From a bacterium (lineage in GTDB: Bacteria; Patescibacteriota; Minisyncoccia; Phycocordibacterales; UBA6899), in contig JAJZQJ010000005.1 in NCBI GenBank assembly GCA_021851895.1, positions 14,572 to 78,571 of the forward strand: a stretch of 64,000 nt of DNA, read 5' to 3'. Below, one piece after another: positions 8,867 through 62,451 of the stretch (position 1 is the first letter of the stretch; each line of letters begins with the position of its first letter). The position numbers and the translations under genes are program-made. The notes beneath the pieces were generated by a model, which was not told the origin of the DNA, searched no databases, and saw only the letters and a program-made list of their open reading frames with translations.

Positions 8867-9796
8867 ATGTCTTTTGATGAACTCAAAAACTATGTAAGCA
8901 GCCAGCGACTCAGTGGCAAAAACGATACTGAGATAAAAGCGGCACTCGACGAGAAGCACTGGCACAAAGATCTCATCGAAAAAGCACTTAAGGAGAGCGC
9001 AATTCCCCCTGAACCGAAGCTGAGTGAGGAAAGACTTGATACTCGCCTACTCTCGATGAGCGAGCTATTCAGAGCGGCATGGGAAGCACTCACAAAACAC
9101 CTCTCTCTTTACGTCCTCGCGGCAACGACCACGCTACTCGCACCAATGCTCGCACTTATCGTCTTCCTTGCTCCTATAATCTATGATATCCGCATACTCC
9201 ATTTCACCACGGCGGACTTCTTTAGCAGGAGCATGCTTCCGATCGTAGTTCTCCATGCGGCGATTGGAATCCTCACCATCGCCCTCATCGCATTCTGGAG
9301 CTCGCTCGCACTCTACACCATAGCGGTGCACGATGGCATGATCACCCTGCGACATGCTTTTGCGCGATCGTGGGAAAGACTTCCAGGATTCGCTTGGATC
9401 GGTGTGCTCTCAGGTATCATCGTCATACTCGGCCTCTTCGTCTTTATCATCCCCGGCATCATCTTCTCCATTTACCTCACCTTCGCATCTCTCGCATATG
9501 TCGTTCATGGAGCACGAGGAAGATCAGCACTTCTCCAAAGCGTAACCCTGGTCCATGGTAAATGGTGGAGAACATTCCTTATGGTGCTCCTTCCATCCTT
9601 TGTCACCGCGCTTATCATTAGCTTCGCAGGATCGATACTTCCTGGAATAGGCAACTTCATCGCACAGGTGATCGTCACCCCGTTCATGACGATCTATGCG
9701 TTGATCCTCTATAAAAACTACTTCGCATTCAAAAAAGCTCACGAAGTCGAAGCAGAAGAGGATCTCTCAGCGCTCACAAAAGCACTTGATAAATAA
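8867..9796 (+). CDS. Polytopic membrane protein, function unknown
   Basis: Soluble N-terminal ~80 aa followed by at least 6 predicted TM helices. Confidence 0.5.
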   Translation: MSFDELKNYVSSQRLSGKNDTEIKAALDEKHWHKDLIEKALKESAIPPEPKLSEERLDTRLLSMSELFRAAWEALTKHLSLYVLAATTTLLAPMLALIVFLAPIIYDIRILHFTTADFFSRSMLPIVVLHAAIGILTIALIAFWSSLALYTIAVHDGMITLRHAFARSWERLPGFAWIGVLSGIIVILGLFVFIIPGIIFSIYLTFASLAYVVHGARGRSALLQSVTLVHGKWWRTFLMVLLPSFVTALIISFAGSILPGIGNFIAQVIVTPFMTIYALILYKNYFAFKKAHEVEAEEDLSALTKALDK

Positions 9797-26946: not shown

Positions 26947-29721
26947 TTACATCGGTTCCGGCAAAATGCTCCGGAAATCGACGTGACGATCCTTTTCGAT
27001 CTGATCCTTCAACCACGACGTAGGGCAATACGTGAGGATGGTGGGACCGTAGTCACACCCCGCCGCAGAAAGCGACGTGAAGACACCAGCATTATGCACA
27101 CGAGCGAAACCGTGGATACTGAACGGATCCTCTGTCGCTGCGGTACCCGACATCACGCCGAGATAACCCGGAGCGAAGATCGCAGCCGCTTTGTGCTTAT
27201 CGCCATAGAACTCGACGATCGATTGCACGCCACGGAAGATTCCGTTGTAATTCCCACGCTGGAGCGCATTGTTCGCGGCCTCAGCGAGACCGAAACCATT
27301 CGCTGCACCATAGCGCGCCGGGCTTCCCCGGAGCGCTATTCCGAACTCGACATCATTGCCCATATCGAGTCGAGCGAGACCGAGTGCGTCCTGGCCATGA
27401 ATCGGTGCTCCGACGAGCGGAGAGCATTCAGCAAGAAGCTCAGGACGATACGCGACGGAAACATACTGCAAAAGATGCGGCTTCATGATCTCGGAGGCAA
27501 TGAAGCCCTCGGAGATGATGCTCTCACCACGAATACCCGAATTCTTCCAGTGATTGCCGTTACCGAAAGCGATCACGGTGAGATCACGAGAATCCTTTAT
27601 GGTACCGAGCACCTCGCTCGCAGGAACGAATCTTGCCGAAGAGTTACAATACGCCTCCACAACACTACCGAGCACATCAGCGTTCGGAATGAGCGTCATG
27701 TAGAGCAACTTCTTGATCTGCTCTTCGGGACGATAGCTCGCCCCCTTCTGCACCTGATCGATGAGAAGATCCCACTGCTCCTTATTCTGCTTCCGCAACT
27801 CCCGAACACTGCTCGAAGTGGACGCCTCCTCGACCTTCTCCTTTCGGATACGCTCGAGGGCGGGCACGGAGAGCTTGTGCTCGTGCGGCTGCAAATAATA
27901 GGGATGATTTGCGCCGTGGCTCAAATCATCAGGGATGAAGTACGCATGCACACGTCCCTTCCCATGATGCTCACGCATGATGTGGAAAATAGCTCCTGTG
28001 AGGTCGAAGAGACCATACTTCGGGGAGCGCACATGCCACTCCCAAGCGTGCCCCACATGGAGGTCACTGGTCAGCATGATCGTGAAATACTTCTCACGAA
28101 TCGACTCGATCTCCTTGCGGCGGGCGCTCAGCATGCCGCCGAGATACCGGAGCGTACTGATCCGATACGACGACACGCGGACGAGACCCTCGCGCAAACT
28201 GAGCGCGAACATGCCGGGCTCAAGAAGTGACTCGCGGAAGAACTGCTCCACCGGAGTACGTTTTTCGAGCATGGCTTCTCGCTCGAGATGTGCGCGCACG
28301 TGCTGTACGTCACAAGTCGGTGGCGGAGTGCACACATAGACGAAACGCGGCTTGTCCGCACACGTGTCATTGAGCAGCGTCACCGCCCCATAGAGAGACC
28401 AGCGGTTTGCAAGGATCTCGACATCCGCAAGCTCACCAGAAAGCGTCAGCTTTTGAAGGTGATTGCGCATTTCGGAATCAAGGAGTTTCGCACTCCTCTT
28501 ATCCCAACCTGCCTCACTCACACGCCAAGTCTTCTTTTTGTGGCCGAAGACCGCCTGTCCACTCCCGACATAGAGTGCTCCGGGAATGGCATCGAGCAGT
28601 TTCTGCACGATGTAATCGTGCAGTCGCTTGTACGCCCGACGGCGATTATCCTTGGAGACGTAAGTCTGCAACGTACGTGCGATCTGATCATCGATCGCAG
28701 CCAACTGGTCCTTGAAGTCGCGGTTCTCGGGATCGGCCTTGATCAACGCGTTCTTTCGAGCACGTTCATCATTAAGACGCTTCACCTCTCGCAGTACGTT
28801 GTACCTGATCTCATAATGCGCACATCGATCGATGAGCTCGCGCTCGCCAGAGGTGAGCATGAGGTAGATCGGCGTGCTGAAACGAGGGGTGACCCCAGAC
28901 TTGCTCGTATCCCTGAAGACCTTCTTGATCCCCGAAAGGAGATTCTCGAGATCCTCGGCGAAGGTCGTGAAAATGGGCGTATCCGGCTCATCCTTCATCA
29001 GAGACTCGACGCGACGACGATAGGCCATCGGAAAGACCTGGGGGTCGATGTCGAGCGAGCTCATACGAGCGATGCTGTTTGCCGTCGCGGCACTTGCCTG
29101 ACGAACGTCCAGGTGGAGCAAGCCACCACAGATGACGACGGCGTATTTGCCGCGGCTTGCGACCTCCATCGCGCAACGCGGAACGAGCTGTGTCATTCGC
29201 GCGTCATAAGGAAGACCGAACATCAGCGACTGCAGAGGGACGATACCCTCGAGCGAGTCAGGAATGACGATCGGTTTCTCGAGCGACGACGAGAGCACGG
29301 GCACTTCAGGAACGGACTGACCGTCCGGAATGACCCGAAAAAGTCCATGCACATGTGCGGGTGGGTTCTTCGGAAGTCCCCTTCCGCGCATCCACCGCAT
29401 CTTCGCCCGAAGGAGCGACAACGGCAGAGTACTGAAATACTTCGCGATGTTCTCCTCGGGCTCTTCGTTTTTGTAGTGCGCCTCGAGCAATTTCGTGCGC
29501 TCCTTCGTCCACACGAGCGCGCCGAGGTGTTCTTGTACGGCAGACTTCGTGAAAGGAAATTCCTTCGAGAAGAGACGTACAAGATCAGGGCGACTCGCGA
29601 TGGCCGCATGCAACGCATTGGCAGGATGATCGTCCCTCAACGTACCGACCGAAATCGCACGCTGAATGAACGAGAGCAGCTTCTTCGACTTCCAGGGATC
29701 GACTGGCTTCTTCGTAGACAT
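26947..29721 (-). CDS. Large hypothetical protein (924 aa) with possible degenerate metallophosphoesterase motifs
   Basis: Long uninterrupted ORF. The C-terminal half has D-x-H (TSDLHVGH), FIPDDLSHG and GNGNHW, reminiscent of calcineurin-like phosphoesterase motifs I-III. The N-terminal ~550 aa has no recognisable family. Confidence 0.5.
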   Translation of the reverse strand: MSTKKPVDPWKSKKLLSFIQRAISVGTLRDDHPANALHAAIASRPDLVRLFSKEFPFTKSAVQEHLGALVWTKERTKLLEAHYKNEEPEENIAKYFSTLPLSLLRAKMRWMRGRGLPKNPPAHVHGLFRVIPDGQSVPEVPVLSSSLEKPIVIPDSLEGIVPLQSLMFGLPYDARMTQLVPRCAMEVASRGKYAVVICGGLLHLDVRQASAATANSIARMSSLDIDPQVFPMAYRRRVESLMKDEPDTPIFTTFAEDLENLLSGIKKVFRDTSKSGVTPRFSTPIYLMLTSGERELIDRCAHYEIRYNVLREVKRLNDERARKNALIKADPENRDFKDQLAAIDDQIARTLQTYVSKDNRRRAYKRLHDYIVQKLLDAIPGALYVGSGQAVFGHKKKTWRVSEAGWDKRSAKLLDSEMRNHLQKLTLSGELADVEILANRWSLYGAVTLLNDTCADKPRFVYVCTPPPTCDVQHVRAHLEREAMLEKRTPVEQFFRESLLEPGMFALSLREGLVRVSSYRISTLRYLGGMLSARRKEIESIREKYFTIMLTSDLHVGHAWEWHVRSPKYGLFDLTGAIFHIMREHHGKGRVHAYFIPDDLSHGANHPYYLQPHEHKLSVPALERIRKEKVEEASTSSSVRELRKQNKEQWDLLIDQVQKGASYRPEEQIKKLLYMTLIPNADVLGSVVEAYCNSSARFVPASEVLGTIKDSRDLTVIAFGNGNHWKNSGIRGESIISEGFIASEIMKPHLLQYVSVAYRPELLAECSPLVGAPIHGQDALGLARLDMGNDVEFGIALRGSPARYGAANGFGLAEAANNALQRGNYNGIFRGVQSIVEFYGDKHKAAAIFAPGYLGVMSGTAATEDPFSIHGFARVHNAGVFTSLSAAGCDYGPTILTYCPTSWLKDQIEKDRHVDFRSILPEPM

Positions 29722-29850: not shown

Positions 29851-30522
29851 CTACTTTTTTAGTGCGAGTCTATCAAAAAGTAAAGGAATATTATACTTCT
29901 TCTCTGCTGAAGCGGGTATGACCTCGATATCAGGATATGCATTCTTAAAATCTCGCAGTGCATGAACTGCCTCCGACTGATTCAGCTTATCCCACTTATT
30001 GAGCACTACAAGCAATGGGTGCCCCTCGTTACGAACAACGTCGATGAGCTCACGATCCTGATCGGTCACTCCAACGCGTGCATCGAGTATGAGCAAAACG
30101 ATCTTCGGACGCACCTCACCACCACCGAGATACCATAAGATATGCTTTCGAATCTTCTCAGCGATAGGAATCGGTAACTTCGCATATCCATACCCAGGAA
30201 GATCGACGACGAATAGTCGATCATCAACGGTATAGAAGTTGATCTCTTGTGTCTTTCCCGGTGTCGCTGAGACGCGCGCAAAAACACCTCCGAGCAGTGC
30301 ATTGATGATCGAAGATTTACCAACATTTGAACGTCCCACAAATGCGATCTGAGGGTACGGCATTCCAAGTATTGGATCAGAGCCGTGAATCCCACGCGTG
30401 AATTGCACACGTAATCCCTCCCTTCCTCCGCCTGCTTTCATCGAACCAGAGGGTCCGATCTTTCCAAAATTACGTGGAGCAACACTTCCTGAATTCTTCG
30501 CATGTCCGCGCTGTGCTTTCAT
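29851..30522 (-). CDS. engB: Ribosome-biogenesis GTPase EngB (YihA/YsxC)
   Basis: Start at MKAQRGHAKNSG (30522). G1 motif VGRSNVGKSSIINAL, G3 DLPGYG and G4 NKWD. Confidence 0.7.
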   Translation of the reverse strand: MKAQRGHAKNSGSVAPRNFGKIGPSGSMKAGGGREGLRVQFTRGIHGSDPILGMPYPQIAFVGRSNVGKSSIINALLGGVFARVSATPGKTQEINFYTVDDRLFVVDLPGYGYAKLPIPIAEKIRKHILWYLGGGEVRPKIVLLILDARVGVTDQDRELIDVVRNEGHPLLVVLNKWDKLNQSEAVHALRDFKNAYPDIEVIPASAEKKYNIPLLFDRLALKK

Positions 30523-30545
30523 CGCTGCACCATAACACAAGATGA

Positions 30546-30580
30546 GGGAATAGGGAATAGGGTATAGGGAATAGGGAAAT
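30546..30580. repeat. Heptamer tandem array (GGGAATA)x5, family A
   Basis: gggaata gggaata gggtata gggaata gggaaat. Exact inverted partner at 30679-30713. Confidence 0.85.
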
Positions 30581-30678
30581 TCAAAGAATGTTACAGAACT
30601 ATAATTTTTCACTAATGAACTCCAAAGAAGTCAATGATAGTGTTTCCTCACGACACCTGCACTTTCAAGCATTTTCAG

Positions 30679-30713
30679 CCCTATACCCTATTCCCTATTC
30701 CCTATTCCCTGGT
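30679..30713. repeat. Heptamer tandem array (CCCTATT)x5, complement of family A
   Basis: ccctata ccctatt ccctatt ccctatt ccctggt. Ends at a TATTAT hexamer 6 nt before the hisS ATG. Confidence 0.85.
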
Positions 30714-30724
30714 ATTATGATTGC

Positions 30725-32092
30725 ATGTCTGATTTTCCAAAAAATCTCCTCCAGAGTCCGAGCGGATTCCCTGAACTCCTCCCAAACGAGGCGATCGCAC
30801 AGCAAAAGGTCATCGACGTGATCCGTAAGCACTATGAGCGCGCCGGCTTCGTACCCATCGAAACCCCTCTCGTTGAACGAGAAGAGGTACTTACCGCGAA
30901 ATCAGAGGGTGAGATCGGTACGCAGATGTACGGCTTGCGCCTCATGAATCCGGCGAAGGACTCACCGACCGACACAAAGGATCTCGTACTTCGCTATGAC
31001 CACACCGTACCTATGGCACGATTCGTCGCAGCTCACCAAAGAGAGATCACTTTCCCATTTCGACGCTTTGCGATCGGCCCTGTATTTCGCGGAGAGCGCC
31101 CTCGAGAAGGTCGTTATCGTCAATTCATCCAAGCAGATATTGATGTCATTGGTGATGGCATCCTCGACAACCTTCACGATGCAGAGATTGTGAGTGTGAT
31201 CGCGAATATCTTCACAGAACTTTCGATCGGCGACTTCACCATCCGCATCGGCAACCGAAAACTGTTGCAAGGCATACTCTCCTCAACAGGCATCAACGAT
31301 AGCCAGATCGCCGAAGCACTTCTCGTAATCGATCACATGGAGAAAGTGAGCGCGGAAGACACCATACATGCACTTGTCCGCTGTGGCATGACCGAAACAA
31401 CCGCAAAAGATGTCATTACCACACTCTCGGACAGTAGAGACTCCGATGAACAACTTGCCTCACTGAAAGAGCGATCTCTCGATGAACTTTACAAGCAAGG
31501 AGTCGGCGAGATCGAGGCTCTCATTAATGGCCTTCGCGCACTCGGTGTGTCAGAGCGTCATTTCACTATCGACCTTTCGATAGCTCGCGGTCTCGCATAT
31601 TACACAGGAAATGTCTTTGAAACGAGACTCGATAACCATGCCGATATTGGCAGTATCGCATCGGGTGGCCGCTATGACGATCTGGCGAGTACGTTCATCG
31701 ACAAGCGACTGCCTGGAGTCGGTATCTCTATCGGCGTATCACGTATATTGCCGAGACTCATCAAAACAGGATTGCTCAGTGCAGACATTTCGACAACGGC
31801 TCCCGTCATCATTACGACTGCATTACCGCTTGAAGCGCATGGCGCTATCTACCTCAGACAAGCCGCACTATTACGAGCTGCTGAAATTTCAACCGAAGTC
31901 TACTTAACAGACAGAGCACTCGGAAAAGAGCTCGAATATGCGAACAAGCGAGGATTCATCATCGCGCTCATCACGGGTGAGCAAGAACTCGCAAAAGGAA
32001 CGATCATCGTCAGAGACCTTCGCTCGGGAAACCAAGTTGAAGTGCATGAACAAGCACTTGTCGAAACAGTGCGATCGATGATGGGTGCATGA
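30725..32092 (+). CDS. hisS: Histidyl-tRNA synthetase
   Basis: Class II aaRS motifs (RYDHTVPMARF, GGRYD) and an anticodon-binding C-terminal domain. Confidence 0.8.
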   Translation: MSDFPKNLLQSPSGFPELLPNEAIAQQKVIDVIRKHYERAGFVPIETPLVEREEVLTAKSEGEIGTQMYGLRLMNPAKDSPTDTKDLVLRYDHTVPMARFVAAHQREITFPFRRFAIGPVFRGERPREGRYRQFIQADIDVIGDGILDNLHDAEIVSVIANIFTELSIGDFTIRIGNRKLLQGILSSTGINDSQIAEALLVIDHMEKVSAEDTIHALVRCGMTETTAKDVITTLSDSRDSDEQLASLKERSLDELYKQGVGEIEALINGLRALGVSERHFTIDLSIARGLAYYTGNVFETRLDNHADIGSIASGGRYDDLASTFIDKRLPGVGISIGVSRILPRLIKTGLLSADISTTAPVIITTALPLEAHGAIYLRQAALLRAAEISTEVYLTDRALGKELEYANKRGFIIALITGEQELAKGTIIVRDLRSGNQVEVHEQALVETVRSMMGA

Positions 32093-36482: not shown

Positions 36483-37646
36483 TTAGAACGTTGGGGTTGC
36501 CACGTAAATGAGATTCGTGTGGTAATCCGTCGCTGCCTCCTGGAGTGGGCTGATCTCAGTCTTGTAGTAGACAGTTGTCGTACCAAAGCCCTGACCGATA
36601 CCCGCTGTCGAAGATGCATTTCCGAACACAGATACTGGCGTTCCGCGAACGAAATCACCGGTATAGAGCTGTCCGCCAAATGAGTAGATACCACCCTGTG
36701 GGATCGCAGCGTCATCAGATGACACACCGATATGGCCCCATGTCGTATCATCGTTCACATTAGCGAGCGGTGCTGCCCATGCAGCTGGAGCTGATGCTGA
36801 GAATCCATCGATGATCGCACCATTCTGTGACTGGAATGGCTGATCAGAGACGACCGTAACATTGAAGCCCTGACGAGCATTGGTCTTCACCTGGAGTTCC
36901 TGTGCAGCAGTTTGTGCAACATTCACTGGGAGAATACCGTAATTGATTGTCGTAGTGCTCGAGTCTGTCGTGATCGCACCATACGTCGTTGGTGTCGTAC
37001 TTGCAACACCCGAGATAGTGAAATCAAAGATTGGATCAACCTGTGCGATAACATCAACATTCTCGACCAATGCAACGCGAATACGTGTCGACTGATTCGA
37101 TGTTATGTTGAAGAGCTCGATCATGTAATTCGCAGCCGTAGGTGTCGATGGCTGTGGATTCAAGATCATGTTGCCTGCAGTGTTACCGAGAGTGACCGTA
37201 TACACCGTAGAGGATGACATGACGCCATGACCTGCACACGGAGTAAGATCAACTTGGTCTGCAACCGCGACCGCAGAGAAATCGTCGGTTCCACAAGTTG
37301 CACCTACTGTCTTTCCAGCAACCGTGATGTCCGCAGCAGTCAATGTACTTGCGTCAAAGTTTGATGCATCCGGATTCGGATAGAACTTGAAGCTGAGTGC
37401 AGTACCTTCTGGAATATCGACCTTCGGCTGGAATACGAACTTGTGCGTAGAATACTGATTCAATGCACCAGTAGTGATACGCGCGTTGTTCAACGTATCG
37501 CTAACGTTTTGGATTGCGATTGTCATCGCAGATGCAGTGTGTGCTGCAAAGATCGCAGAAACCGTACTGATAACCATGAGAACACTGAGGAAAGCAGTGA
37601 ATGCCTTCTGTTCTCTGAAGTAAGCAAACAAATTTTTGTAATTCAT
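36483..37646 (-). CDS. Secreted Ig-like surface protein, paralog A, with C-terminal ...NLIYVATPTF domain
   Basis: Start at MNYKNLFAYFREQKAF plus a signal peptide. 55-60% identical to the 38026 gene. The C-terminal ~200 aa is homologous to the C-terminus of the 1788-aa protein. Confidence 0.55.
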   Translation of the reverse strand: MNYKNLFAYFREQKAFTAFLSVLMVISTVSAIFAAHTASAMTIAIQNVSDTLNNARITTGALNQYSTHKFVFQPKVDIPEGTALSFKFYPNPDASNFDASTLTAADITVAGKTVGATCGTDDFSAVAVADQVDLTPCAGHGVMSSSTVYTVTLGNTAGNMILNPQPSTPTAANYMIELFNITSNQSTRIRVALVENVDVIAQVDPIFDFTISGVASTTPTTYGAITTDSSTTTINYGILPVNVAQTAAQELQVKTNARQGFNVTVVSDQPFQSQNGAIIDGFSASAPAAWAAPLANVNDDTTWGHIGVSSDDAAIPQGGIYSFGGQLYTGDFVRGTPVSVFGNASSTAGIGQGFGTTTVYYKTEISPLQEAATDYHTNLIYVATPTF

Positions 37647-38025
37647 AAGAACTATACAAGCAGCGTTATGGGACACTGCTTAGGCGAATAAGCGTGGGCG
37701 CAAAAGTGTAATCGCAAATGCAAATACACCAGTGCTTTGGCGTTTTTCGACGACGCCATGGAAAGTGGAAAACCCGCAAACCTATGCGCCCCAGCGGATA
37801 CATACATCTACTGGCGGAGGATTTCCTCCTACTTGTAATTATACTACATATGTGAACAACTTACTGATAAACCTGTGGACAAGTACTAAAAGTGAATGCA
37901 TAGCATGGGGATAACACCTGCTCATCTACGTTGACGATCGGAAATAAGATGAAACCTCCCCCACCTGAACGGGAAAAACGCCCCCGTAGGGACGTTTTCT
38001 CCGTTTGCTTTCTTTAGGATTATGA

Positions 38026-39210
38026 TCAGAACGTCGGTGTAGCGACGTAGATGAGATTCGTGTGATAATCGGTTGCAGCCTCCTGAAGTGGAGTGACTTC
38101 CGATCGGTAGAAGACCGTAGTCGTACCAAGACCAACACCGAAACCTGCGGTCGACGACGCATTACCGAAGACAGACACAGGGATTCCCCGGACGAAGTCT
38201 CCGGTCCAATGGTCGCCACTAAGCGCCGCAGATCCAGGAATGTCCGCGTCATCACTCGAAACTGCGATGTGCCCCCAAGTCGTATCATCGCCAAGCAATG
38301 CTGCTGGTGCTGCATATGCCGTCGGTGCCCCTACAGTTGCAGGGAAACCATCGATGATCGCGCCGTTTGAAGACTGGAATGGCTGATCCGCAACGACGGT
38401 GACATTAAAGCCCGTCTTTGCATTCGTAATGACACGAAGTTCCTGCGCAGCAGTCTCCGGTGTGTTCACTGGGAATGCACCATAGGCGATGGTCGAGGTG
38501 GATGAGTCGATCGTAATCGGCTTACCATCGATCGTCGTACTACTTGCAACCCCTGATACTGTGAAATCAAATGCGGGATCAACAGATGCAGAAACCAAGA
38601 CACTGCTCACCAGTGCGACCAGGGTCGATGTGAACTGATTCGATGGACCAGCGATGTCTACCTGATAGGTGTATGCATCATACTGAGCTCCAGGTGCCGG
38701 GTTCGCGACCAGATGACGAGTCGAACTGCCGAACGTTACCGAAAATGGCGACGTCGAAGCGATCGTATTTCCTGGGCAGACTGAAAGTGCAAGCACGGAT
38801 GCACCTGGCGTGAAAGAGTAGTTCTCGCTGCCCGTACAGCTTGCGCCAACGATCTTGCCAGGAACATTCACGTCGAGCGCATCGATACCCGATGCATCGA
38901 AATTCGTTCCCGTATTCCCTCTTCCCATGCTTGCGTCATCAGCACGGAAAGTGAACGTGAGCGACTGACCCGCAGTGACATCGACCTTTGGCGTCAAGAC
39001 AAAGGTGTGTGCAGACGAATAGGTCGTCCCCGCCGTAGATAAACGCGCATTACTCAATGTGTCCGTCACATTGCCAAATGCGAGATATGCAGCCGAAGCG
39101 ACATGCGCCTCAAACGCAGCTGCAGATGAACCTATGATCACAATAATAGACAGAAAAGCGGAAAACGCCTTCTGCTCCCTAAAGAAAGCAAGGGATTGTG
39201 AATATTTCAT
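38026..39210 (-). CDS. Secreted Ig-like surface protein, paralog B
   Basis: Start at MKYSQSLAFFREQKAF. Tandem duplicate of the 36483 gene including a ~350-nt upstream region. Confidence 0.55.
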   Translation of the reverse strand: MKYSQSLAFFREQKAFSAFLSIIVIIGSSAAAFEAHVASAAYLAFGNVTDTLSNARLSTAGTTYSSAHTFVLTPKVDVTAGQSLTFTFRADDASMGRGNTGTNFDASGIDALDVNVPGKIVGASCTGSENYSFTPGASVLALSVCPGNTIASTSPFSVTFGSSTRHLVANPAPGAQYDAYTYQVDIAGPSNQFTSTLVALVSSVLVSASVDPAFDFTVSGVASSTTIDGKPITIDSSTSTIAYGAFPVNTPETAAQELRVITNAKTGFNVTVVADQPFQSSNGAIIDGFPATVGAPTAYAAPAALLGDDTTWGHIAVSSDDADIPGSAALSGDHWTGDFVRGIPVSVFGNASSTAGFGVGLGTTTVFYRSEVTPLQEAATDYHTNLIYVATPTF

Positions 39211-39471
39211 TAAAAACAAGTTAAACAGCGTTATGGGACACTGTTTAAACGTATAAGTGGGCGCAAAAGTGTGCCGAGTGGCACGCTGCGAGGCATCGAC
39301 AGATGCCGAAAGTGGAAAACCCGCTGCTTATGCGCACAAGAAGATCATTCGATCGACTTGTGGAGGACGGCCTCCTACATGCAATTATACTACAGATGTG
39401 AATAAATATGTGTATAAATATGTGGACAACACACAAAAAAACTGCACAACCTGTGGATAGGTCGCGCAGTA

Positions 39472-41908: not shown

Positions 41909-44900
41909 TTAATAGACAGGGGTGATCACGTAGATAATGTTCGTACTATATGTGCCAGGCGGAGTGCCTGCATGCGGCTCTATCTTATAGACGACATCAA
42001 CAGTCTCACTCCCCGTTGTTGGGAGATCTGAATAACCAACTTCCGATGGAGTGCTCGTCGCGAATTCAGCCCAAGAATCATTCGGGGCGAATCTGTCTGG
42101 TATCCCCGTCGGACTCAACGTATGATCAGATGTGTGATAACCGATACAACCTGCACTCGCTGCAGGACACCCCGTAGACCAAGGTACCGGTGCGGAATTT
42201 GGTGCACCAATGATCGATGGCAGCTTATCTCCATAAGCGTCGAGCAAATCCCCTTCTGCCTGCATCGTCACCTGATACCCCATCATAGCATTCGTCGTTA
42301 TGTGCAATTGATGCGCAAGCACGGCGACCGAATCCATCGTGAGCATGCCAAATGGAGTTGTTGTTGCCGTTGTTGTACCTGTCGTTACTGAGCCATCGAT
42401 GGTGACGCCTGCATTTACTCCACTAACGAGGCCGTCGACAGTCGCTCCCTCCGCAACGACTGACGGATAAGACGCGGCACTCTTCTCGAGCGGTACATTC
42501 CGATTCACGTCATAGAGGCGGAAAAAATACGTCTGACCGGTGCGTTCTCGCATCGAGGTTATTGTATACTCCATTTCAGTATTACTACCCGCTGCAGGAG
42601 AGAATGTCGACGTACTCGTTGCTTCATTGTGCCTTCCCAGTGTTGTGCCTGTGAGGGTTTGAACCGAAAGATTCGTATCATCAGGTCCTACTCCATACGC
42701 ATAGCAAAACGTACTTGTCGCCATACAATCATTCTGCAGATCAGCGAAATGCACCCCTGAACTGAACGTTGGGTCCTCCGACCACTGCACTGCGAAGCGT
42801 TCATTCGATCCCGATTCATTTGCAACATCTTGAAGCGCGGCACGCAGCTTGAATATAGTCTTATTCGCCACACCTGATGGTGCAATCTCTACACCTGCCC
42901 CCAAGAATGGTTGCCAATTGACCTCATTTGCGTAATCATCAACGAAACGCCAAGATGATATCTCTGGTGTATACCCTGCAGTACGTATGACCGGATAGAA
43001 GTCGTAACCAAACAATGGTTTGCCGCCATCCTCTACTACACGAAAACAGTAATCAGAATCCTTAAGCGCATTATTTCGTTTCAATGCCCAATCATATTCG
43101 ATATAATCACCCGTCTCACTCGTATTCGCCGGATTCGGATTCAACGCGGTGAGTCCATCTTCCGAATAGAGCTCGGGAACATGCCCGATTGCGACCGCAA
43201 CGAGCGCAGAAGGAATGCTTGTTCCGCTTGATAGGCCAGCATTGTGATATCCCGACCAATCGCCACTTGCATTCACATCCATCCAGCTTGCAGATGGGAT
43301 GGCGCTACAAGAACCAGAAGTGCGTAATGCGGACTGCAATTGAAAGGCGCGATCGGCTATTGGCATCGTTGAAGTGCTTACTGCAAGTGCGATACGCAAA
43401 CGCACGCTATCACTCTTACGCACAGGGCGATTAAGCGCGGTCATCTCCTGATCATCTCCGAGTGGATTTGGCGACCCAAGATACCAAGAATCCGTAGGAG
43501 TTAGTGCGCCGTTATCGGTATAGATACGGAAACCGGCTTGCGTGAACGTCGCGCGACGCACCTGCTGATGCTCTTCGTAAGTGATCGTAAACACATTACT
43601 GAAATTGGTATAATCGACCGCGGTCGACTTTGCATTACGCACAAGCATCGAGATCGTACTGCTTGGCATCGTCCCACTCCCCCAAAGATCAGTCGCGAGC
43701 ACAGGCTGCAACATGGTTGTATTGTATGGATACGAAGTCGCAGGACCCGCCTCGGTAGTTACGGTCCCCGCACCGCCCACTGCAGAAATAAATGCACCTC
43801 TTGTGATCGTTGTTGCCGCACCGTGTGCGATATACGTCTCAAGTTCTGCGGCACGAAAAGTCGTATCGACATCACGAGCGAGATCGATCGAAAACGGATA
43901 TGTTGTTGTCGCTATCGCCGTACTCGGAGCATATTGCTGTGGTGCCACATACGAGAGACTTCTCGCTTGTGTACCCCCATGACTTCCATCCCAAACGTAC
44001 GTGATAAGTAATTCTGCGGTTGCAGGGACCGAAGCCGTGACGAAATTGATGTTCGCGCTGATCGCAGTCCCTGAGGTCGCGTAAGATCCAACAAGCGAAG
44101 AGAGATCATGGATGATATACGTCTCTCCTCCACCACGATTGGTCATCGTTCCTGTCGTGTATGTTTGACTCAAACTTGATGCCCCTACGGTTCCTCCAAT
44201 TTGTGCCGAAAGCGAACTATGCGGTGAGTAGCGCACACGCAACCACATATTCTGTACTTGCGCTGACTGCATAGGAAGTATTGGTGTAAATGTACCAATA
44301 GTTGTTGCAACTCCAACAGTAGGCGCGGTCGCGAGCTGTCCGAGCGGATAGGACAACGTCTCCGATTGCTGATTCGAACGACTTGAATACGCGTAGGTTA
44401 CGACGATCTCTCCACCCGTCTGCGCCAAAATGACTTTGTTGTTGCTCGATGATACTGCGATAGTATTCGGCGTATTGATCTGAAAATCATTCACCCCAAT
44501 GGGCATACCCCAGAACAACCGAAGACCAGTAGAATCCAATGAGGTTTCCGTTGGACTAAATGTCACACTCGAACCTGCAGTATGACCTACGGTGACCGTA
44601 TATGCACGCTGGTTCGCACTTCCCGCGGAATTTGCGAGCGTCGTGATCTCTGCATGCACATCAAGAATATTCGCAGTGTCGTTATTCAAAAGATCCGCAA
44701 TCGTCGCGTTGTAATTAAAATCACAACCCTTCACCGCACAAACCGAAGTGATCGATCCTGAGTCACCTGCGACCGTAGAATCGAGCGGAAACCGCACCGT
44801 CTTGACTCCAACCATCGGATTCAAAGAATATGAGGTCTCATACGTAACAACCAATTTCGCGGTTGTGAGTGCACGTGTTGGACCTGTCGAGGAAAGAGCG

Positions 44901-47275
44901 ACACCCACGTTCACACCATTATTGAGCGCCGCACTCGACTGACCGATGAACAAACGTGTTGCATCGATTTGCGAGTGATAATAGTTCGTGACCGTACTTC
45001 CACCACCGGCGATCTGATTCATCGGCGCAACGTAAAGTTGAATGCCTTGAGCGTCACCAGAGAGTGAACCAGTGATATCACCAGTCACGGTGAGGCCCGT
45101 AAGTGCAACGACATTTGTCGAAGAAAATGAGAGGTCGACATATGCATTAACGACCTTTGCATCATCACCGAGCAATTTCACGAGCATGCCTGCCGGCTTC
45201 GCTGTCCCCCAAGTTGCGCCAGCGTACGAATACACTCCACTCGCTGCAGTCGCTTGATAGGTTCCGCCGCCGAGCATGAACTCCGCAGTACGCATTTGCT
45301 TTGGTTTTGGCACGAATGCGACAGGCGCGGCGGCCGAATAGGTGAGCACAACGACATTCGCGAAATACGTATAGTTCGCGGACACATCGACACTCTCTTC
45401 GATCGCAAATGGATAACGTTCACCCGAAAGATCGGATGTCGCACCGATATCGCTCGGCGTAAATCTTGCATAGAAACGTTCCGCGAATGGATACGTACCG
45501 CCCGTACCACCAACTTCCGCGATCGAAAGTGCATTTGCTGTCGTCGATGTGCCGAAGCCGATGTGTACTCCAGAAGAGATGGTGATCGCTGCAGTGTTCG
45601 AATGACCGAAATGCACTTCAAGAAAACCATCTTCAAATGTTTTTTGCGCACGCTCAGGGAGAAAGAGTATCGCATGGCGCACCTTATCCACCGTACCCAC
45701 ATTTCGACCAACCGCAGGCAAAGAGGCGGCATATGTCGCGGTCTTCGTCTGTGCGCTCGTCGGAGAATAGGTCCAGGAGAACGTCGTTACCACCTCAATA
45801 GCGACAGGAGATCCCCCTGCCCCACTGAATGCGAATGTTCCCCCAACAGGAGTCGATGCTGAAAACGAGAGACTCTCTGGAGTCAAACTGTGAATGACGA
45901 CCGGTGAATTCGCTGAACGTCGCGCGGTCGACGGAGCAGGAAATTGGTAGACCTGACTTGTACCACTTGTACCGTTCACACTATGGGTCACCGTCAAATT
46001 CGTCGCTGCAGTAAACACCGGAGCAAGGCTCATACGATACCAAGCCTTCTCAACGACAGGAGCATCGTTCGCTATGGCGATATTCGTCGTTGAGATTGGA
46101 ACACTCGCACCAGCTGCAGGAGATGCGGTCTCTTGATCAGAAAAATATCTTATCGTCTCTGTTTGCGTCGTTGCTGTTGGGTTGAATTTATACGTGATCA
46201 CCACCTCACCACCAGTTGCATAAAGTGCCGCACCTCCAGCGGTGTTCACAAGATTCAGTGTATGTAGCGTGTTCGCGCGAAGGTCAGAACCACCGATAGG
46301 TAGCGCACCCCAAAGCACGCGAGTCTCATGTGTATCGGCGACCGCTTCGTTCCATGCATAAAGTGGAGAAGCGGTTCCCCCAGAGAACTGGAGGCGAAAT
46401 GTTGAATTCACCGTGCCTGCGTGATATGCATAGAACTCGATGTGTGCATCGAGGATGTTCGCATCCGCCGAAAGATCGCGGATAACATTCGTGTCGAAGG
46501 TGAAAGGACATGTTGCACCAGCAGCACAAACCGTTGTACGCGTACCAGTATTTCCTGCAACTCCAGTTGATGCGAGTGGAAGATGCACAGACTTCACGAG
46601 ATACGGCAAGGTTCGATCGATATCCACCTCATAGGTGATCGACAATTTTGCAGTAGTCAACGCCCTGTTTCCCGCGCTCAATGTTGGAGCAACTCCAACA
46701 AGCACATGAACACCCGAATTGAAGGCGGAGTCTGATTGCGTAGCAAAGAAACTCGTGACGTCATTCACCGTCCTCAAGTAACCCGTACCGCCCGCCATGA
46801 TCGCAAGAGGGATAGTACCATTTGCACCGTTCACGGGCACATCAGTACCCTGAGTGCCCGAACCTTCGACATCCATGAAAATCCTATTCTCTGTAACTGA
46901 GGCAGCTGCGGTATATGGATACTCATACGAGACATCAAGCTGTGCGCTGAGCACATGGACGCCAGTCCCAAGCAAGGTGACCACGTCGCCACCTGTTGTA
47001 AGCGTCGGCTTTGTCGTCGACCATGCAGTCGCGCCCGCATAAGCCATTACCCCACTCGCACGCACGGTATTGTCCGACCCACCGCCGAGCACGAATTCCG
47101 CCGTACGCAATTCTTTGCCGAATGCCGTCGCAGAAGCCTCTGCATGACGGACACCAAACGTTCCAAGCATGAGGAAGAAAGCATCGACGCCACCCATGCT
47201 GACCAAAAACAACGCGACGAGAAGTGTCGTCGTGAGTATTTTCATAGAAAAAGTTCTCGCGTTGTTTATGGTCAT
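41909..47275 (-). CDS. Giant (1788 aa) Thr/Ser/Gly-rich cell-surface protein
   Basis: Signal peptide (possibly from M11, 47245). Internal ~600-aa repeat (TAEFVLGGGS.../TAEFMLGGGT...). C-terminal domain shared with the 36483/38026 proteins, ending NIIYVITPVY. Confidence 0.6.
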   Translation of the reverse strand: MTINNARTFSMKILTTTLLVALFLVSMGGVDAFFLMLGTFGVRHAEASATAFGKELRTAEFVLGGGSDNTVRASGVMAYAGATAWSTTKPTLTTGGDVVTLLGTGVHVLSAQLDVSYEYPYTAAASVTENRIFMDVEGSGTQGTDVPVNGANGTIPLAIMAGGTGYLRTVNDVTSFFATQSDSAFNSGVHVLVGVAPTLSAGNRALTTAKLSITYEVDIDRTLPYLVKSVHLPLASTGVAGNTGTRTTVCAAGATCPFTFDTNVIRDLSADANILDAHIEFYAYHAGTVNSTFRLQFSGGTASPLYAWNEAVADTHETRVLWGALPIGGSDLRANTLHTLNLVNTAGGAALYATGGEVVITYKFNPTATTQTETIRYFSDQETASPAAGASVPISTTNIAIANDAPVVEKAWYRMSLAPVFTAATNLTVTHSVNGTSGTSQVYQFPAPSTARRSANSPVVIHSLTPESLSFSASTPVGGTFAFSGAGGSPVAIEVVTTFSWTYSPTSAQTKTATYAASLPAVGRNVGTVDKVRHAILFLPERAQKTFEDGFLEVHFGHSNTAAITISSGVHIGFGTSTTANALSIAEVGGTGGTYPFAERFYARFTPSDIGATSDLSGERYPFAIEESVDVSANYTYFANVVVLTYSAAAPVAFVPKPKQMRTAEFMLGGGTYQATAASGVYSYAGATWGTAKPAGMLVKLLGDDAKVVNAYVDLSFSSTNVVALTGLTVTGDITGSLSGDAQGIQLYVAPMNQIAGGGSTVTNYYHSQIDATRLFIGQSSAALNNGVNVGVALSSTGPTRALTTAKLVVTYETSYSLNPMVGVKTVRFPLDSTVAGDSGSITSVCAVKGCDFNYNATIADLLNNDTANILDVHAEITTLANSAGSANQRAYTVTVGHTAGSSVTFSPTETSLDSTGLRLFWGMPIGVNDFQINTPNTIAVSSSNNKVILAQTGGEIVVTYAYSSRSNQQSETLSYPLGQLATAPTVGVATTIGTFTPILPMQSAQVQNMWLRVRYSPHSSLSAQIGGTVGASSLSQTYTTGTMTNRGGGETYIIHDLSSLVGSYATSGTAISANINFVTASVPATAELLITYVWDGSHGGTQARSLSYVAPQQYAPSTAIATTTYPFSIDLARDVDTTFRAAELETYIAHGAATTITRGAFISAVGGAGTVTTEAGPATSYPYNTTMLQPVLATDLWGSGTMPSSTISMLVRNAKSTAVDYTNFSNVFTITYEEHQQVRRATFTQAGFRIYTDNGALTPTDSWYLGSPNPLGDDQEMTALNRPVRKSDSVRLRIALAVSTSTMPIADRAFQLQSALRTSGSCSAIPSASWMDVNASGDWSGYHNAGLSSGTSIPSALVAVAIGHVPELYSEDGLTALNPNPANTSETGDYIEYDWALKRNNALKDSDYCFRVVEDGGKPLFGYDFYPVIRTAGYTPEISSWRFVDDYANEVNWQPFLGAGVEIAPSGVANKTIFKLRAALQDVANESGSNERFAVQWSEDPTFSSGVHFADLQNDCMATSTFCYAYGVGPDDTNLSVQTLTGTTLGRHNEATSTSTFSPAAGSNTEMEYTITSMRERTGQTYFFRLYDVNRNVPLEKSAASYPSVVAEGATVDGLVSGVNAGVTIDGSVTTGTTTATTTPFGMLTMDSVAVLAHQLHITTNAMMGYQVTMQAEGDLLDAYGDKLPSIIGAPNSAPVPWSTGCPAASAGCIGYHTSDHTLSPTGIPDRFAPNDSWAEFATSTPSEVGYSDLPTTGSETVDVVYKIEPHAGTPPGTYSTNIIYVITPVY

Positions 47276-47279
47276 TTTT

Positions 47280-49472
47280 TTAATTAACTACAGGGGTCGA
47301 AGTTGCGTCAGACTCAGTGCGTATGACGGGCGGAGTTGCGACGACGATCTCAGTGTTCGATACCGGCGTCTTTGGTTGGTTACGTGTATTGTCAACGAGT
47401 CTACGCGCAAGTGCAGTGAGGTCGAAGGTTTGTGCACCATCGACGCTACTGCCCACCATACGCATTTGCCCATTGGCATCCTCTTCATTCCACACGAGTG
47501 CAACTCTTGGAGATTCGCTCTTCACTCCTGGTTTCGAAACGCGATGAGCGACACCTGTTGTGATGTCGTATGCGAAGACCTGCCACACACCATCTTCGAT
47601 CGCCTGCCACGTGATCGTATCACCAGAGACATTCGGGAACATATCCGGTGCGTTATTCGCAGTAATGCGCTTCACCAACCAGTCACCGTTCACTCCTACT
47701 GCACGATGATCAGCAGACAACGCATCATCAGGTATTTTCTCTGGAGATGGAGCAGCAGTGAATATTTCCCAATTTCCATCTACCCATGCTTGCCATGCGA
47801 TTCTTCCGCCGTACACTTTGGGATTGAAATTATTATCTCCGCTAGTGAGATACTTCACCTTTGGTACTCCAACATCATTCACGTGCGCATATGCGATTTG
47901 CCACTTACCATTCTGCATTGATTGCCATACGAGCGTATCGCCAGATGGATCAAGAACAGGGAAAACGTTGTCATCCGTTCCATGCGTAAGCTGTATGGTG
48001 CTTGCGCCACGCACAAGGAAAATCTGTTTATTTCCCGTCGACGGATCCGGCTGGACAACCACGGAAATCGAGCGCTCGTTCGCGATCACTGGCGAACCGA
48101 ACGACTGTGCATCAGGGATACAGTAATAACCCGTTCCATCGAGATTCTTACAACCCCGATAGACCTCTTGCTCCACTTCCCTACGCACCTCTTGTTTCAC
48201 CTCATCACGTACTTCATTACGTAACTCACCGCGCATCTCGTTGCGCAACCGCGCACGAATCGCATCGATGTTACCGATGACCTCATCAGGTGCGACATCG
48301 AGGATCGGCGTCTCCCCGTCGGCTGTTGTTGATGCAACAGTCTCTGTTTGCATGGTCTCATCAACGACGATCGTCGTAGATGCAGTACTTGACGATGCGG
48401 TGTCGATGATCACAGGAGGTGGCGTCTCGATAGCGCCCTCTGACGATGAGGTCGAAGAATCTGATGATGAGGTATCCGACAGTGCCGCACCGCCACCCGA
48501 TGAGACAGGTTGAGTAACCGGCGCTGGATCAGCGACTTCCTGGGTTGTACCCGAAGCGTCACTCGAAGAAGCGGGGGTCTCTGTGGTTGGCGTATCCGAA
48601 GCGAGCTTGTCTGTTGTACTTCCAGAATCTACGACCGGAAGCGAATCGGTTGCCGAGCTCGCTACTGGTGCAGGTGTCGGATCGGATTGCGTAATCGCTG
48701 CAACGTCGTTGCCACCACCCTGCGCTACCGACTGCGGAGCACCAGCATTTGCGTCTGCAGTCGGTGCAGTCTGGACATCTTGCGATGTTGGAGAATCTGC
48801 AGCATTAACGGTTTGAGTATCTTGCGCTGCCGCTGCATCAGCAGAAGATGGCGCAGCTGATTGACTTACGTCAGAGGACACAGAAGGAGCCGCAACGGCA
48901 GCAACATTCGAACTTACGTCAGATTCTGGTGCAGAAGCTGGCTGAGTGTTGTCTGCAACGGAAGTGCTCGGTGCATCACTGGATCCAACGATCGCTGCGA
49001 CATCACTTGCGACACGATCAGCAAGTGGCGCCTCATCTGCGTATGCAGGAGCGAGCGGAGCAATGAGCATTGCAGGTATGAGTAACCATGCGAAGAAACG
49101 CGCAAGAGGAGATGCGGGTTTGACTGCTGCAACACGAACATCACTACCCGAGAGAGCTGCGTCGATAACTCTTCGCAGAGCGCCTTCATCTTTTCGCGCG
49201 TGCGCGTATGCGTGCGCGCTCGCGCGCGCCTGCGCGTGCGCACGCGCGCGCGTAACAGAAAAACTTCGAACGGTCAAATCAGCGGATTTTGCATCACGCG
49301 AAAGGTTTGTCCCCCCACCTGTTACTGCAGTTACAGACGCTTTTCTTTGGGAAAGCAGAATAGCCCCACCCGTCTTCGGGGAGGAGGTGTGCTGCACAAG
49401 CCTTGTTGGTGGCGGTTTTATACCACTACGCGGCAAGTGAACAATACTGTTTTCCGGTTCGTATTTCATCAT
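47280..49472 (-). CDS. Membrane-anchored protein with a low-complexity stalk and C-terminal TolB/WD40-like beta-propeller
   Basis: Repeated DxxPxxSGDxxxWQ blades at the C-terminus; one TM after a ~130-aa cytoplasmic N-terminus. An alternating-CG tract at 49196-49260 lies inside the coding sequence. Confidence 0.55.
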   Translation of the reverse strand: MMKYEPENSIVHLPRSGIKPPPTRLVQHTSSPKTGGAILLSQRKASVTAVTGGGTNLSRDAKSADLTVRSFSVTRARAHAQARASAHAYAHARKDEGALRRVIDAALSGSDVRVAAVKPASPLARFFAWLLIPAMLIAPLAPAYADEAPLADRVASDVAAIVGSSDAPSTSVADNTQPASAPESDVSSNVAAVAAPSVSSDVSQSAAPSSADAAAAQDTQTVNAADSPTSQDVQTAPTADANAGAPQSVAQGGGNDVAAITQSDPTPAPVASSATDSLPVVDSGSTTDKLASDTPTTETPASSSDASGTTQEVADPAPVTQPVSSGGGAALSDTSSSDSSTSSSEGAIETPPPVIIDTASSSTASTTIVVDETMQTETVASTTADGETPILDVAPDEVIGNIDAIRARLRNEMRGELRNEVRDEVKQEVRREVEQEVYRGCKNLDGTGYYCIPDAQSFGSPVIANERSISVVVQPDPSTGNKQIFLVRGASTIQLTHGTDDNVFPVLDPSGDTLVWQSMQNGKWQIAYAHVNDVGVPKVKYLTSGDNNFNPKVYGGRIAWQAWVDGNWEIFTAAPSPEKIPDDALSADHRAVGVNGDWLVKRITANNAPDMFPNVSGDTITWQAIEDGVWQVFAYDITTGVAHRVSKPGVKSESPRVALVWNEEDANGQMRMVGSSVDGAQTFDLTALARRLVDNTRNQPKTPVSNTEIVVATPPVIRTESDATSTPVVN

Positions 49473-49531
49473 TACGGACCACGATGGGCAGCCACCCATC
49501 AATGATCACCATAAGGACGATTGCATATGGG

Positions 49532-54487: not shown

Positions 54488-54489
54488 AA

Positions 54490-54517
54490 GTAAGAAGTAA
54501 GAAGTAAGAAGTAAGAA
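54490..54517. repeat. Heptamer tandem array (GTAAGAA)x4, family B, abutting the pheT ATG
   Basis: cat-aa-gtaagaa gtaagaa gtaagaa gtaagaa ggttgaa. Inverted partner at 54926-54957. Confidence 0.85.
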
Positions 54518-54537
54518 GGTTGAAATACCTATCTTTC

Positions 54538-54888: not shown

Positions 54889-54902
54889 AATATTGCTTTT
54901 GA

Positions 54903-54957
54903 GAGTGAAGTAGTTGTGAGAATTTCCTTCCCACTTCTCACTTCTTACTTCTCACTA
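54903..54957. repeat. Heptamer array (ACTTCTC/ACTTCTT)x3-4 plus inward GTGAGAA units, complement of family B, beginning at the pheS stop codon
   Basis: gtgaagtagttgtgagaa-tttccttccc-acttctc acttctt acttctc act. On the minus transcript this reads TAG-TGAGAAG-TAAGAAG-TGAGAAG-TGGGAAG. Confidence 0.8.
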
Positions 54958-55773: not shown

Positions 55774-55848
55774 TTTTTCAACGTTTCCTTGATGTGCAAG
55801 ACTTACCATGCTAGCCTGACTGTAGAGAAAGTTCACCAGAAAGGACCC

Positions 55849-56403: not shown

Positions 56404-56413
56404 CATGTCCTTG

Positions 56414-56436
56414 CCGCACGATCGTGCGGTTTTTTC
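56414..56436 (+). terminator. Rho-independent terminator
   Basis: ccgcacgatcgtgcgg followed by tttttt. A TTGCAA-17-TATGGT promoter follows. Confidence 0.55.
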
Positions 56437-62450: not shown

Positions 62451-62451
62451 A

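Follow-up and report, generated by a model that had tools for sequence, protein, structure and literature searches.

The 64-kb stretch of DNA analyzed here (64,000 nucleotides of contig JAJZQJ010000005.1, hereafter called the window) derives from a bacterium of the Candidate Phyla Radiation (CPR) and contains a pair of inverted arrays of 7-nt units in the spacer between two divergent genes, ysxC/engB (TIGR03598, E 2e-47) and hisS (PF13393). The location in the divergent engB/hisS promoter region, as given by the initial annotation of this DNA, was confirmed by the two gene assignments. The elements of this spacer, designated site A, follow each other in the order engB CAT (the minus-strand start codon)-CGCTGCACCATAACACAAGATGA-left array-100 nt-right array-GGTATTATGATTGC-hisS ATG. 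Tandem Repeats Finder returned the consensus AGGGAAT for the left array (4.9 copies) and CCCTATT for the right array (4.6 copies). The units of the left arm are GGGAATA GGGAATA GGGTATA GGGAATA GGGAA(AT), and those of the right arm, read as the reverse complement, are (ACCA)GGGAATA GGGAATA GGGAATA GGGTATA GGG.

These arrays are real and far exceed what chance produces. Exact period-7 runs reached at most 10 matches in 200 shuffles of the window, compared with 11, 18, 24, 31, and 27 matches in the window itself, all of them within the six arrays described below, and the sequence of site A is identical between the NCBI contig of the metagenome-assembled genome and an independent Logan assembly. 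As originally proposed, the two arrays are copies of one another and both bear the variant unit GGGTATA. However, they are not the exact 35-bp reverse complements that had been described: the longest perfect complement comprises 25 bp (30545-30569 with 30679-30703) and lies one unit out of register, and the fullest pairing register yields ∼32 bp with 2 mismatches, or 41 nt at 85%. The variant was said to occupy the mirrored position, but it is unit 3 in the left arm and unit 4 in the mirrored right arm, an offset of one unit. Likewise, the number of five units per array holds approximately, the fifth unit being incomplete on either side (GGGAAAT left, CCCTGGT right).

Exactly six strong period-7 arrays are found in the window. 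They form three pairs, and each array has 4.3 to 5.4 units. The two further pairs, which had also been noticed before, were recovered by Tandem Repeats Finder and located by Pfam gene assignments at pheS/pheT (site B) and rpmE/prfA (site C). All six arrays are intergenic and lie at gene boundaries; a rough gene map puts the non-coding share of the window at ∼10%. With G standing for GGGAATA and K for AAGTGAG/AAGTAAG, the unit types are G/G at site A, K/K at site B, and K/G at site C. At all three sites, the plus strand carries the purine- or G-rich arm on its left and the pyrimidine- or C-rich arm on its right, an order that by symmetry is the same on the minus strand. The pyrimidine-rich arm ends exactly at the ATG of pheT and of prfA, and the pheS stop codon marks the beginning of the purine-rich arm. 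A specific tie of the arrays to translation genes, as suggested earlier, was not established: three of three sites have such neighbors in a window rich in these genes, yet sites next to non-translation genes are known elsewhere (PMC2700814, PMC3936711).

At site B, the loop is occupied by a gene for a 116-amino-acid protein of family PF05635, known as 23S rRNA intervening-sequence protein (IVP, S23p). The protein also matches TIGR02436 (four helix bundle protein) and, more weakly, Avd, a protein of diversity-generating retroelements; its closest solved structures, 2GSC and 2RLD, have five chains each. The gap between pheS and pheT is only 2-11 nt in four relatives (L208, L209, L210, and L211; PheT 70-83% identical), and therefore the 467 nt from the pheS TAG to the pheT ATG (54488-54954) represent an insertion. 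The comparison indicates that an array-gene-array cassette replaced the spacer exactly between the pheS stop and the pheT start. The two arms (54486-54518 with 54927-54956) are predicted to form a terminal RNA stem of ∼31 bp, composed of 27 Watson-Crick and 4 G-U pairs, and one arm is homogeneous, the other mixed. Upstream of the pheT ATG there is neither a Shine-Dalgarno sequence nor a -10 element, only (CTTACTT)n. The pheS frame (54955-56577) is open for 540 codons; its family match covers residues 292-537 only, PheS of the relatives has 257 aa, and the long N-terminal part of the frame is probably not translated.

The rpmE/prfA spacer (62451-62609) is composite. An arm of (GGGAATA)4.9 with a degenerate (GGGTATT)2 partner is accompanied by a weak terminator-like hairpin with a T run (62533-62562, minus strand) and then by a degenerate (AAGTGAT AAGTGCG) partner, which leads to (CTCACTT)5 ending at the prfA ATG. 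Two partly decayed foldbacks that differ in unit type appear to adjoin each other in this spacer.

Table 1. Arrays, loops, and putative promoters of the three sites in the window, and the engB/hisS spacers of four relatives
Feature	Coordinates	Strand	Description
Site A, engB/hisS			left (GGGAATA)n, loop 100 nt, right (CCCTATT)n
Site A, left G-rich array	30545-30578	+	A GGGAATA GGGAATA GGGTATA GGGAATA GGGAA; 4.9 units; Tandem Repeats Finder, period-7 scan
Site A, loop (core)	30579-30678		100 nt, AT-rich, between the arms
Site A, right C-rich array	30679-30710	+	CCCTATA CCCTATT CCCTATT CCCTATT CCCT; 4.6 units; Tandem Repeats Finder, period-7 scan
Putative leaderless promoter of hisS	30710-30727	+	extended -10 TGG-TATTAT (30710-30718), 6 nt, ATG (30725-30727)
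Putative leaderless promoter of engB (ysxC)	30520-30537	-	TGT-TATGGT (30537-30529), 6 nt, ATG (30522-30520)
Site B, pheS/pheT			left (AAGTAAG)n, loop = IVP gene, right (CTTCTCA/CTTCTTA)n
Site B, left array	54486-54518	+	(AAGTAAG)4.4; minus-strand reading (CTTACTT)n, with its end exactly at the pheT ATG (54487)
Site B, IVP gene in loop	54538-54888	-	116 aa; PF05635 E 1.3e-38; TIGR02436 E 3e-37; PDB 2GSC E 5e-24
Site B, right array	54927-54956	+	CTTCTCA/CTTCTTA/CTTCCCA; minus-strand reading begins at the pheS stop TAG
Site C, rpmE/prfA			left (AGTGAGA)n, loop ∼85 nt, right (TTCCCTA)n
Site C, array	62451-62491	+	(AGTGAGA)5.4 plus AGTAAG; minus-strand reading (TCTCACT)n, with its end exactly at the prfA ATG (62450)
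Site C, degenerate partner of the AGTGAGA array	62492-62513		
Site C, short degenerate partner	62563-62576		(GGGTATT)2
Site C, array	62576-62609	+	(TTCCCTA)4.9, same unit as site A; on the minus strand starts 6 nt after the rpmE stop
L127, engB/hisS spacer			(CAGTAAA)2, 32 nt, (TTTACTG)4
L124, engB/hisS spacer			single inverted copies of the CAGTAAA unit
L126, engB/hisS spacer			ATGGGAA ... TTCCCAT TCCCCAT
L236, engB/hisS spacer (HisS 63% identical)			76 nt, both -10 elements, no arrays

Five IVPs were aligned, and the alignment was used to fetch 80 IVP loci from metagenomes (L128-L207). Among the loci listed, a period-7 array was present within 300 nt of the gene in 36 of 80 and on both sides in 15 of 80; the thresholds of the array caller are arbitrary. 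The density of period-7 arrays was ∼9-fold higher near the genes than far from them (1.39 versus 0.16 per kb). Period 8 came second with 0.45 per kb, and periods 4-6 and 9-12 were near background with about 0.1 per kb. In 35 of the 65 IVP loci with enough flanking sequence the flanks are inverted repeats, compared with 4 in a direct-repeat control and 3 in shuffled sequences. Arrays upstream of the IVP genes have more G than C in 33 of the 34 cases with unequal G and C, and arrays downstream have more C than G in 31 of 37. The length of the arrays varies from 2.7 to more than 15 units and the units themselves vary widely, including AGGAAGG, ACTAGGG, TTTAGGG, ATTAGGG, GGATAGT, AGTGGCT, and others. 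The layout stop codon-array ... array-ATG is repeated at three of these loci (L145, L155, and L140).

Many of the units near IVP genes, both in the metagenomes and on viral contigs (L212-L221), are telomere-like (TTTAGGG, ATTAGGG, ACTAGGG, AGTAGGG), and TAG occurs in 20 of 35 units, with 6 expected. Stop codons are enriched in both arms of these arrays, and this enrichment would suit the idea that period 7 serves as a three-frame stop barrier; periods 4, 5, and 10 would serve equally, yet they are rare. Several IVP genes on viral contigs are again flanked by inverted heptamers. Phages were dismissed as a major vector, as only 10 IVP loci and 14 array stretches were found in 2.9 million viral contigs. 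On one Logan contig of 1250 nt (L003), the independent short-read assembly breaks inside a heptamer array beside an IVP gene. Heptamer arrays likely fragment assemblies and are likely under-represented at contig ends.

The unit of site A was also followed in reference genomes. Three consecutive copies of GGGWATA were found in more than 120 reference-genome stretches among the matches listed, mostly in cyanobacteria but also in Bacteroidota, Gemmatimonadota, Acidobacteriota, Planctomycetota, Chloroflexota, and other phyla. Four IVP genes occur at the listed GGGWATA loci, and all four directly abut arrays. Neighboring arrays at these loci are ordered G-then-C in 57 cases, 44 of which have a gap of ≤200 nt, and C-then-G in 24 cases, all with gaps of at least 229 nt. 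Therefore, the gene-less foldback with a short loop (G-array, short loop, C-array) is the common form, and by its sequence site A corresponds exactly to it. Cyanobacterial G-then-C pairs with loops of more than 400 nt were also considered as cassettes, but they hold ordinary genes, for example a HypA-like open reading frame (ORF) in L047, and were rejected as adjacent elements.

The loop of site A contains no credible ORF and no match to a sigma-70 promoter or a terminator (30400-30850 scanned for terminators). A lone TATAAT (30600-30605) lacks a usable -35 or TG. An IVP-gene remnant in the loop was rejected after a six-frame profile search of the loops of sites A and C came back empty (best E 0.4). 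At the nucleotide level, a borderline match of 18/21 nt exists between the site A loop and the C-terminal coding part of the site B IVP gene; its score is 27, and shuffles reached at most 25.

Three genomes with ∼80% HisS identity (L124, L126, and L127) likewise have engB and hisS in divergent orientation. The initial annotation had named absence from related genomes and lack of a bias toward gene boundaries as grounds for discarding the arrays; inverted heptamers are present at the orthologous spacer in all three relatives (Table 1), in addition to the boundary position of all arrays in the window. The rpmE/prfA spacer of a 70% relative (L211) harbors an inverted (AGTCATG)n pair, and this unit recurs in L211 after alaS and near pheT. 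Presence/absence polymorphism was evident as well, since site B is absent in L208, L209, L210, and L211, and the site A spacer is free of arrays in L236. In these genomes, the layout of the arrays and their location are retained although the unit is exchanged, and sites within one genome have units in common.

Further arrays were seen in the same relatives. The pheT/gyrB spacer of L211 (GCA_964386905.1, 11950-12540) contains nested repeats, namely an inverted (ATGATTT)n pair ∼290 nt apart, a GGGTATA-like array inside, and TTGTCATTGCGACGGCCCCGA in two copies, and a degenerate foldback of G-rich and C-rich heptamers lies upstream of a tRNA gene at 8900-8990. The engB/hisS spacer of L124 (9800-9960) contains GAGCGATCGC, which includes a single occurrence of the octamer GCGATCGC, the HIP1 palindrome of cyanobacteria. 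The gene for 924 aa that adjoins engB in the window is replaced by two other genes in L124 (80% relative).

The sequences adjacent to both ATGs are conserved in the three relatives, TGT-TATGGT-N6-ATG at engB and TGG-TATTAT-N6-ATG at hisS. The hisS motif TATTAT-N6-ATG is found in the window, L124, L126, L127, and L236; the engB motif TGTTATGGTGCA-N3-ATG is kept in the window, L124, L126, and L127, and the corresponding layout in the 63% relative L236 is TGTTATTGTGTTTGA-ATG. Each ATG is preceded at 6 nt by a -10 hexamer that five genomes conserve, and we infer from this that the engB and hisS mRNAs are leaderless, start at or beside the ATG, and run outward. The right array had been reported to reach into the hisS -10 element, and this is indeed the case, as its end is T30710 of TGG-TATTAT, 7 nt before the hisS ATG. 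Relative to the putative starts, the arrays occupy about -14 to -46 (hisS) and about -24 to -57 (engB). Many genes of the window (e.g., 7243, 11495, 19850, 23145, 26878, 30522, and 30725) lack a Shine-Dalgarno sequence and have a TATAAT-like hexamer that precedes the ATG by 5-9 nt, mostly by 6 nt; a minority of genes have clear GGAGG sites. This pattern suggests that leaderless mRNAs are widespread in this CPR bacterium.

These putative starts bear on the proposal that the arrays act as an RNA hairpin. The initial annotation had envisaged a 35-bp perfect stem as a substrate of RNase III; in its revised form, both arms would lie on one RNA, and cleavage of a stem of 25-32 bp by RNase III would control the expression of engB and/or hisS. 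Site A is indeed predicted to fold into a long hairpin with a minimum free energy of -65.5 kcal/mol (z = -6.2), and the ∼31-bp stem around the IVP ORF of the sister element at pheS/pheT resembles the Coxiella intervening sequence (IVS), in which an S23p ORF lies within a terminal stem of 28 bp that RNase III cleaves (PMC4990558). However, the conserved -10 hexamers imply leaderless mRNAs that run away from the arms, and no sigma-70-type promoter is found inside the site A region. Both arms and the loop would thus be upstream of both starts, so that a single RNA with both arms is not expected and appears unlikely, which, along with the imperfect stem, weakens the RNase III reading for site A. 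By analogy with the intervening sequences of rRNA, it is reasonable to assume that this reading suits the co-transcribed pheS/pheT and rpmE/prfA sites, which lie within co-directional gene pairs, much better. Site A matches no known RNA family at the Rfam gathering thresholds, and at E ≤ 1 it yields only far sub-threshold plant miRNA hairpin models, which reflects the long hairpin. An intrinsic terminator was rejected on the basis of the location between divergent gene starts and the terminator scan described above. Mismatches between the arms of 70 related cassettes comprise 97 G-U and 119 A-C, giving no signal of RNA-level selection on the stems, and this lack of a G-U excess favors copying at the DNA level over selection on RNA pairing. 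In all, we consider it improbable that an RNA hairpin accounts for site A.

Alternatively, the arrays could be arrays of protein-binding sites, with about five 7-bp sites per arm for a nucleoid-associated or global regulator, or for a pentameric IVP, acting on the divergent promoters. Their position relative to the two putative starts and the narrow range of 4.3-5.4 units in the window would fit such a role, and the IVP family is described as homopentameric, in line with the five chains of 2GSC and 2RLD, in the part of PMC4990558 that cites Lin et al. (2006). Moreover, class 3 of the predicted global regulator binding sites of Geobacter metallireducens consists of eight pairs of five tandem heptanucleotides each, on opposite strands at variable distance, e.g., ∼100 bp apart between moaA/mosC and between proB/proA (PMC2700814, Aklujkar et al., 2009). 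Site A resembles these pairs in architecture and kind of location, but their unit is MTYCTGA instead of GGGAATA, and no link to PF05635 or to other phyla was made there; the regulator-site proposal is an annotation only. Other findings are difficult to reconcile with a binding protein. The unit is GGGAATA, CAGTAAA, or GGGAATG among genomes that share 80% HisS identity, IVPs with 72-76% identity are associated with different units, and arrays elsewhere range from 2.7 to more than 15 units. In addition, within operons, where promoters would not be expected, arrays directly adjoin stop and start codons. The related possibility that the IVP reads the sequence and co-evolves with the unit was likewise not supported, given the same IVP identities between different units. 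A protein-binding function therefore seems unlikely, if somewhat less so than the RNA hairpin.

It is also conceivable that site A is a local microsatellite, formed when slippage expanded a short existing palindrome twice independently, and that it is unrelated to the other elements. Copy number at the orthologous site varies from 1 unit (L124 and L126) to 2-5 units (L127 and the window), and the arms of a pair differ in copy number and in the position of the variant, with one homogeneous and one mixed arm at site B. Such independent expansions would, however, not be expected to give the same GGGAATA unit at site C, 32 kb away, and in many phyla, nor the GGGTATA variant in both arms, the strong preference of period 7 over periods 4-6 and 9-12, or a polarity rule across hundreds of arrays; moreover, site B arrived as a unit with its gene. 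The microsatellite explanation is thus largely refuted and has the smallest probability of all those considered.

At the level of sequence comparison, we regard three points as established: a foldback family with fixed polarity is present across phyla, its gene-carrying form is an insertion that fills the intercistronic spacer exactly from stop codon to start codon, and its units are common to sites within one genome and different between related genomes. A member of the family is composed of a G-rich array, in which 7-nt units follow in tandem, a loop, and a complementary C-rich array. In the gene-carrying form, the loop contains a PF05635 gene, as at pheS/pheT, and the element is built like a protein-coding 23S rRNA IVS. 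The best explanation for site A, which we favor without considering it secure, is that it belongs to this family as a member with an empty loop and occupies the spacer as a selfish or near-neutral element. This assignment to the family has far better support than the absence of a function. The elements may propagate and be homogenized at the DNA level by copying between sites, slippage within arms, and copying between arms, and may occupy spacers in a selfish or near-neutral manner. The site A element would lie in untranscribed DNA upstream of two leaderless promoters and probably has little or no role as RNA; at the co-transcribed sites pheS/pheT and rpmE/prfA, pairing of the arms is expected to give a long stem of the type that RNase III cuts in the IVS of rRNA.

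Several observations speak against this explanation of site A. Inverted heptamers are kept at the same two spacers in several relatives, which could reflect selection for a function rather than an insertion hotspot, and all 4 of the arm mismatches at site B are G-U in the sense RNA, as RNA-level selection there would produce. Neither a transposase, a recombinase, nor a reverse transcriptase was found in the 64-kb window, and no target-site duplication is visible at site B, whose flanks TAG|...|ATG show no direct repeat. The loop of site A bears no protein-level trace of an IVP, so a descent from a gene-carrying cassette is not demonstrated for this site. Finally, the loci from the genome and metagenome scans are the best or first matches and not a random sample.

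As a possible origin of the elements, the arrays could have been made in place by the templated addition of a 7-nt unit to both 3' ends left by a break or nick in the spacer, with an Avd-like IVP pentamer as cofactor. The reaction would be telomerase-like or a target-primed reverse transcription and would be followed by capture of a loop, either filler DNA or an IVP gene. We put this forward as a long shot. It would account for the G-rich strand that runs 5'→3' into the element from both sides, for complementary arms of unequal copy number, and for genome-specific units that are common to sites and turn over at fixed sites. It would also explain the preference for 7 and then 8 nt and the TAG-containing, telomere-like units (TTTAGGG, ATTAGGG, AATAGGG), and would fit the relation of the IVP to the reverse-transcriptase cofactor Avd. 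No enzyme for such an addition was found in the 64-kb window.

Heptanucleotide repeats in bacterial spacers are not new. The short tandemly repeated repetitive (STRR) sequences of heterocystous cyanobacteria were reportedly described by Mazel et al. in 1990; they are intergenic tandem 7-nt units with many copies per genome, and we know of no function that has been assigned to them since. Like the STRR sequences, the arrays described here consist of a tandem 7-nt unit in non-coding DNA, and GGGWATA arrays occur in many cyanobacterial genomes beside other heptamers. Unlike them, they reside in a CPR/Patescibacteria host, are short (∼5 units), form inverted G/C pairs, and are linked to PF05635 genes. 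The closest named relatives of HisS belong to Parcubacteria, Kaiserbacteria, and Paceibacterota, and by these named best matches the host is not a cyanobacterium. STRR sequences are highly repeated through the cyanobacterial genome, and three sites were found in 64 kb here. Neither the pairing nor the polarity nor a link to PF05635 was found in the STRR literature searched, which did not cover the early STRR papers. STRR sequences have been used as fingerprinting markers (PMC5088731).

With the 23S rRNA IVS of Coxiella and Leptospira, the elements share the PF05635 gene inside a predicted ∼31-bp stem (site B) and complementary termini, which at site A pair over 25 bp perfectly or over ∼32 bp with 2 mismatches. 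They differ from protein-coding IVS in that the site A loop has no PF05635 ORF, from IVS in general in that sites A, B, and C lie between protein genes with no rRNA in the window, and in that the stems are 7-nt tandem arrays with a fixed G-then-C polarity, a feature not reported for IVS (PMC4990558, PMC11270868). Protein-coding IVS are regarded as selfish and sporadically distributed (PMC4990558, PMC11270868), and insertions with and without an ORF coexist in the rRNA genes of CPR bacteria (PMC11270868). IVP genes located between cmr3 and cmr2 were read as cas-associated (PMC3936711), and in the light of the layout described here such a gene looks like another invasion of an operon.

Two classes of mobile or repetitive elements show related features. 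Foldback (FB) transposons of Drosophila have terminal inverted repeats made of short tandem subrepeats, with variable arms and with loops that are empty or carry genes. The repetitive extragenic palindromes and bacterial interspersed mosaic elements (REP/BIME) are intergenic palindromes with a genome-specific consensus and many copies. The elements studied here are similar to FB elements in their arms of short tandem subrepeats, variable length, and a loop that is empty or holds a gene, and similar to REP/BIME in their genome-specific consensus, intergenic location, and many copies. In contrast to both, no associated transposase or gene resembling a REP-associated tyrosine transposase (RAYT) and no target-site duplication were seen, and the sole cargo is a small four-helix-bundle protein. 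We know of no catalytic activity of this protein, nor of a function of the very common PF05635 four helix bundle/S23p proteins. A literature search of incomplete coverage found no link between heptamer arrays and PF05635/S23p/Avd-like genes, and the IVP-heptamer link appears to be undescribed.

Other features of the window concern regions outside the three sites. An 18-nt motif, CAGTGTCCCATAACGCTG, occurs twice on the minus strand (37661-37678 and 39226-39243), flanked by short complementary bases, and its copies lie 15-27 nt upstream of the ATGs of two neighboring genes of similar length (36483-37646 and 38026-39210). Neither gene has a Pfam match in the precomputed table, and the motif could be a common operator or an RNA hairpin. 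A GCGCGT-rich repeat with periods of 6, 22, and 24 lies at 49195-49252 inside an ORF of 739 aa (47280-49499). This ORF and two others, of 924 aa (26947-29721) and 1788 aa (41909-47275), have no Pfam match, and the 924-aa ORF has no match in NCBIfam.

For site A itself the practical consequence is modest: an empty copy with a minor part in regulation is the most likely case. For the annotation of genomes, the results imply that IVP genes inside cas, phe, or other operons are probably invaders and not functional partners. We propose a common grammar for these elements, in which a G-rich 7-mer array, a loop with or without an IVP gene, and a C-rich array with genome-specific units would be inserted from stop to start codon. 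STRR heptamers, rRNA intervening sequences, and PF05635 proteins may accordingly be facets of one kind of element.

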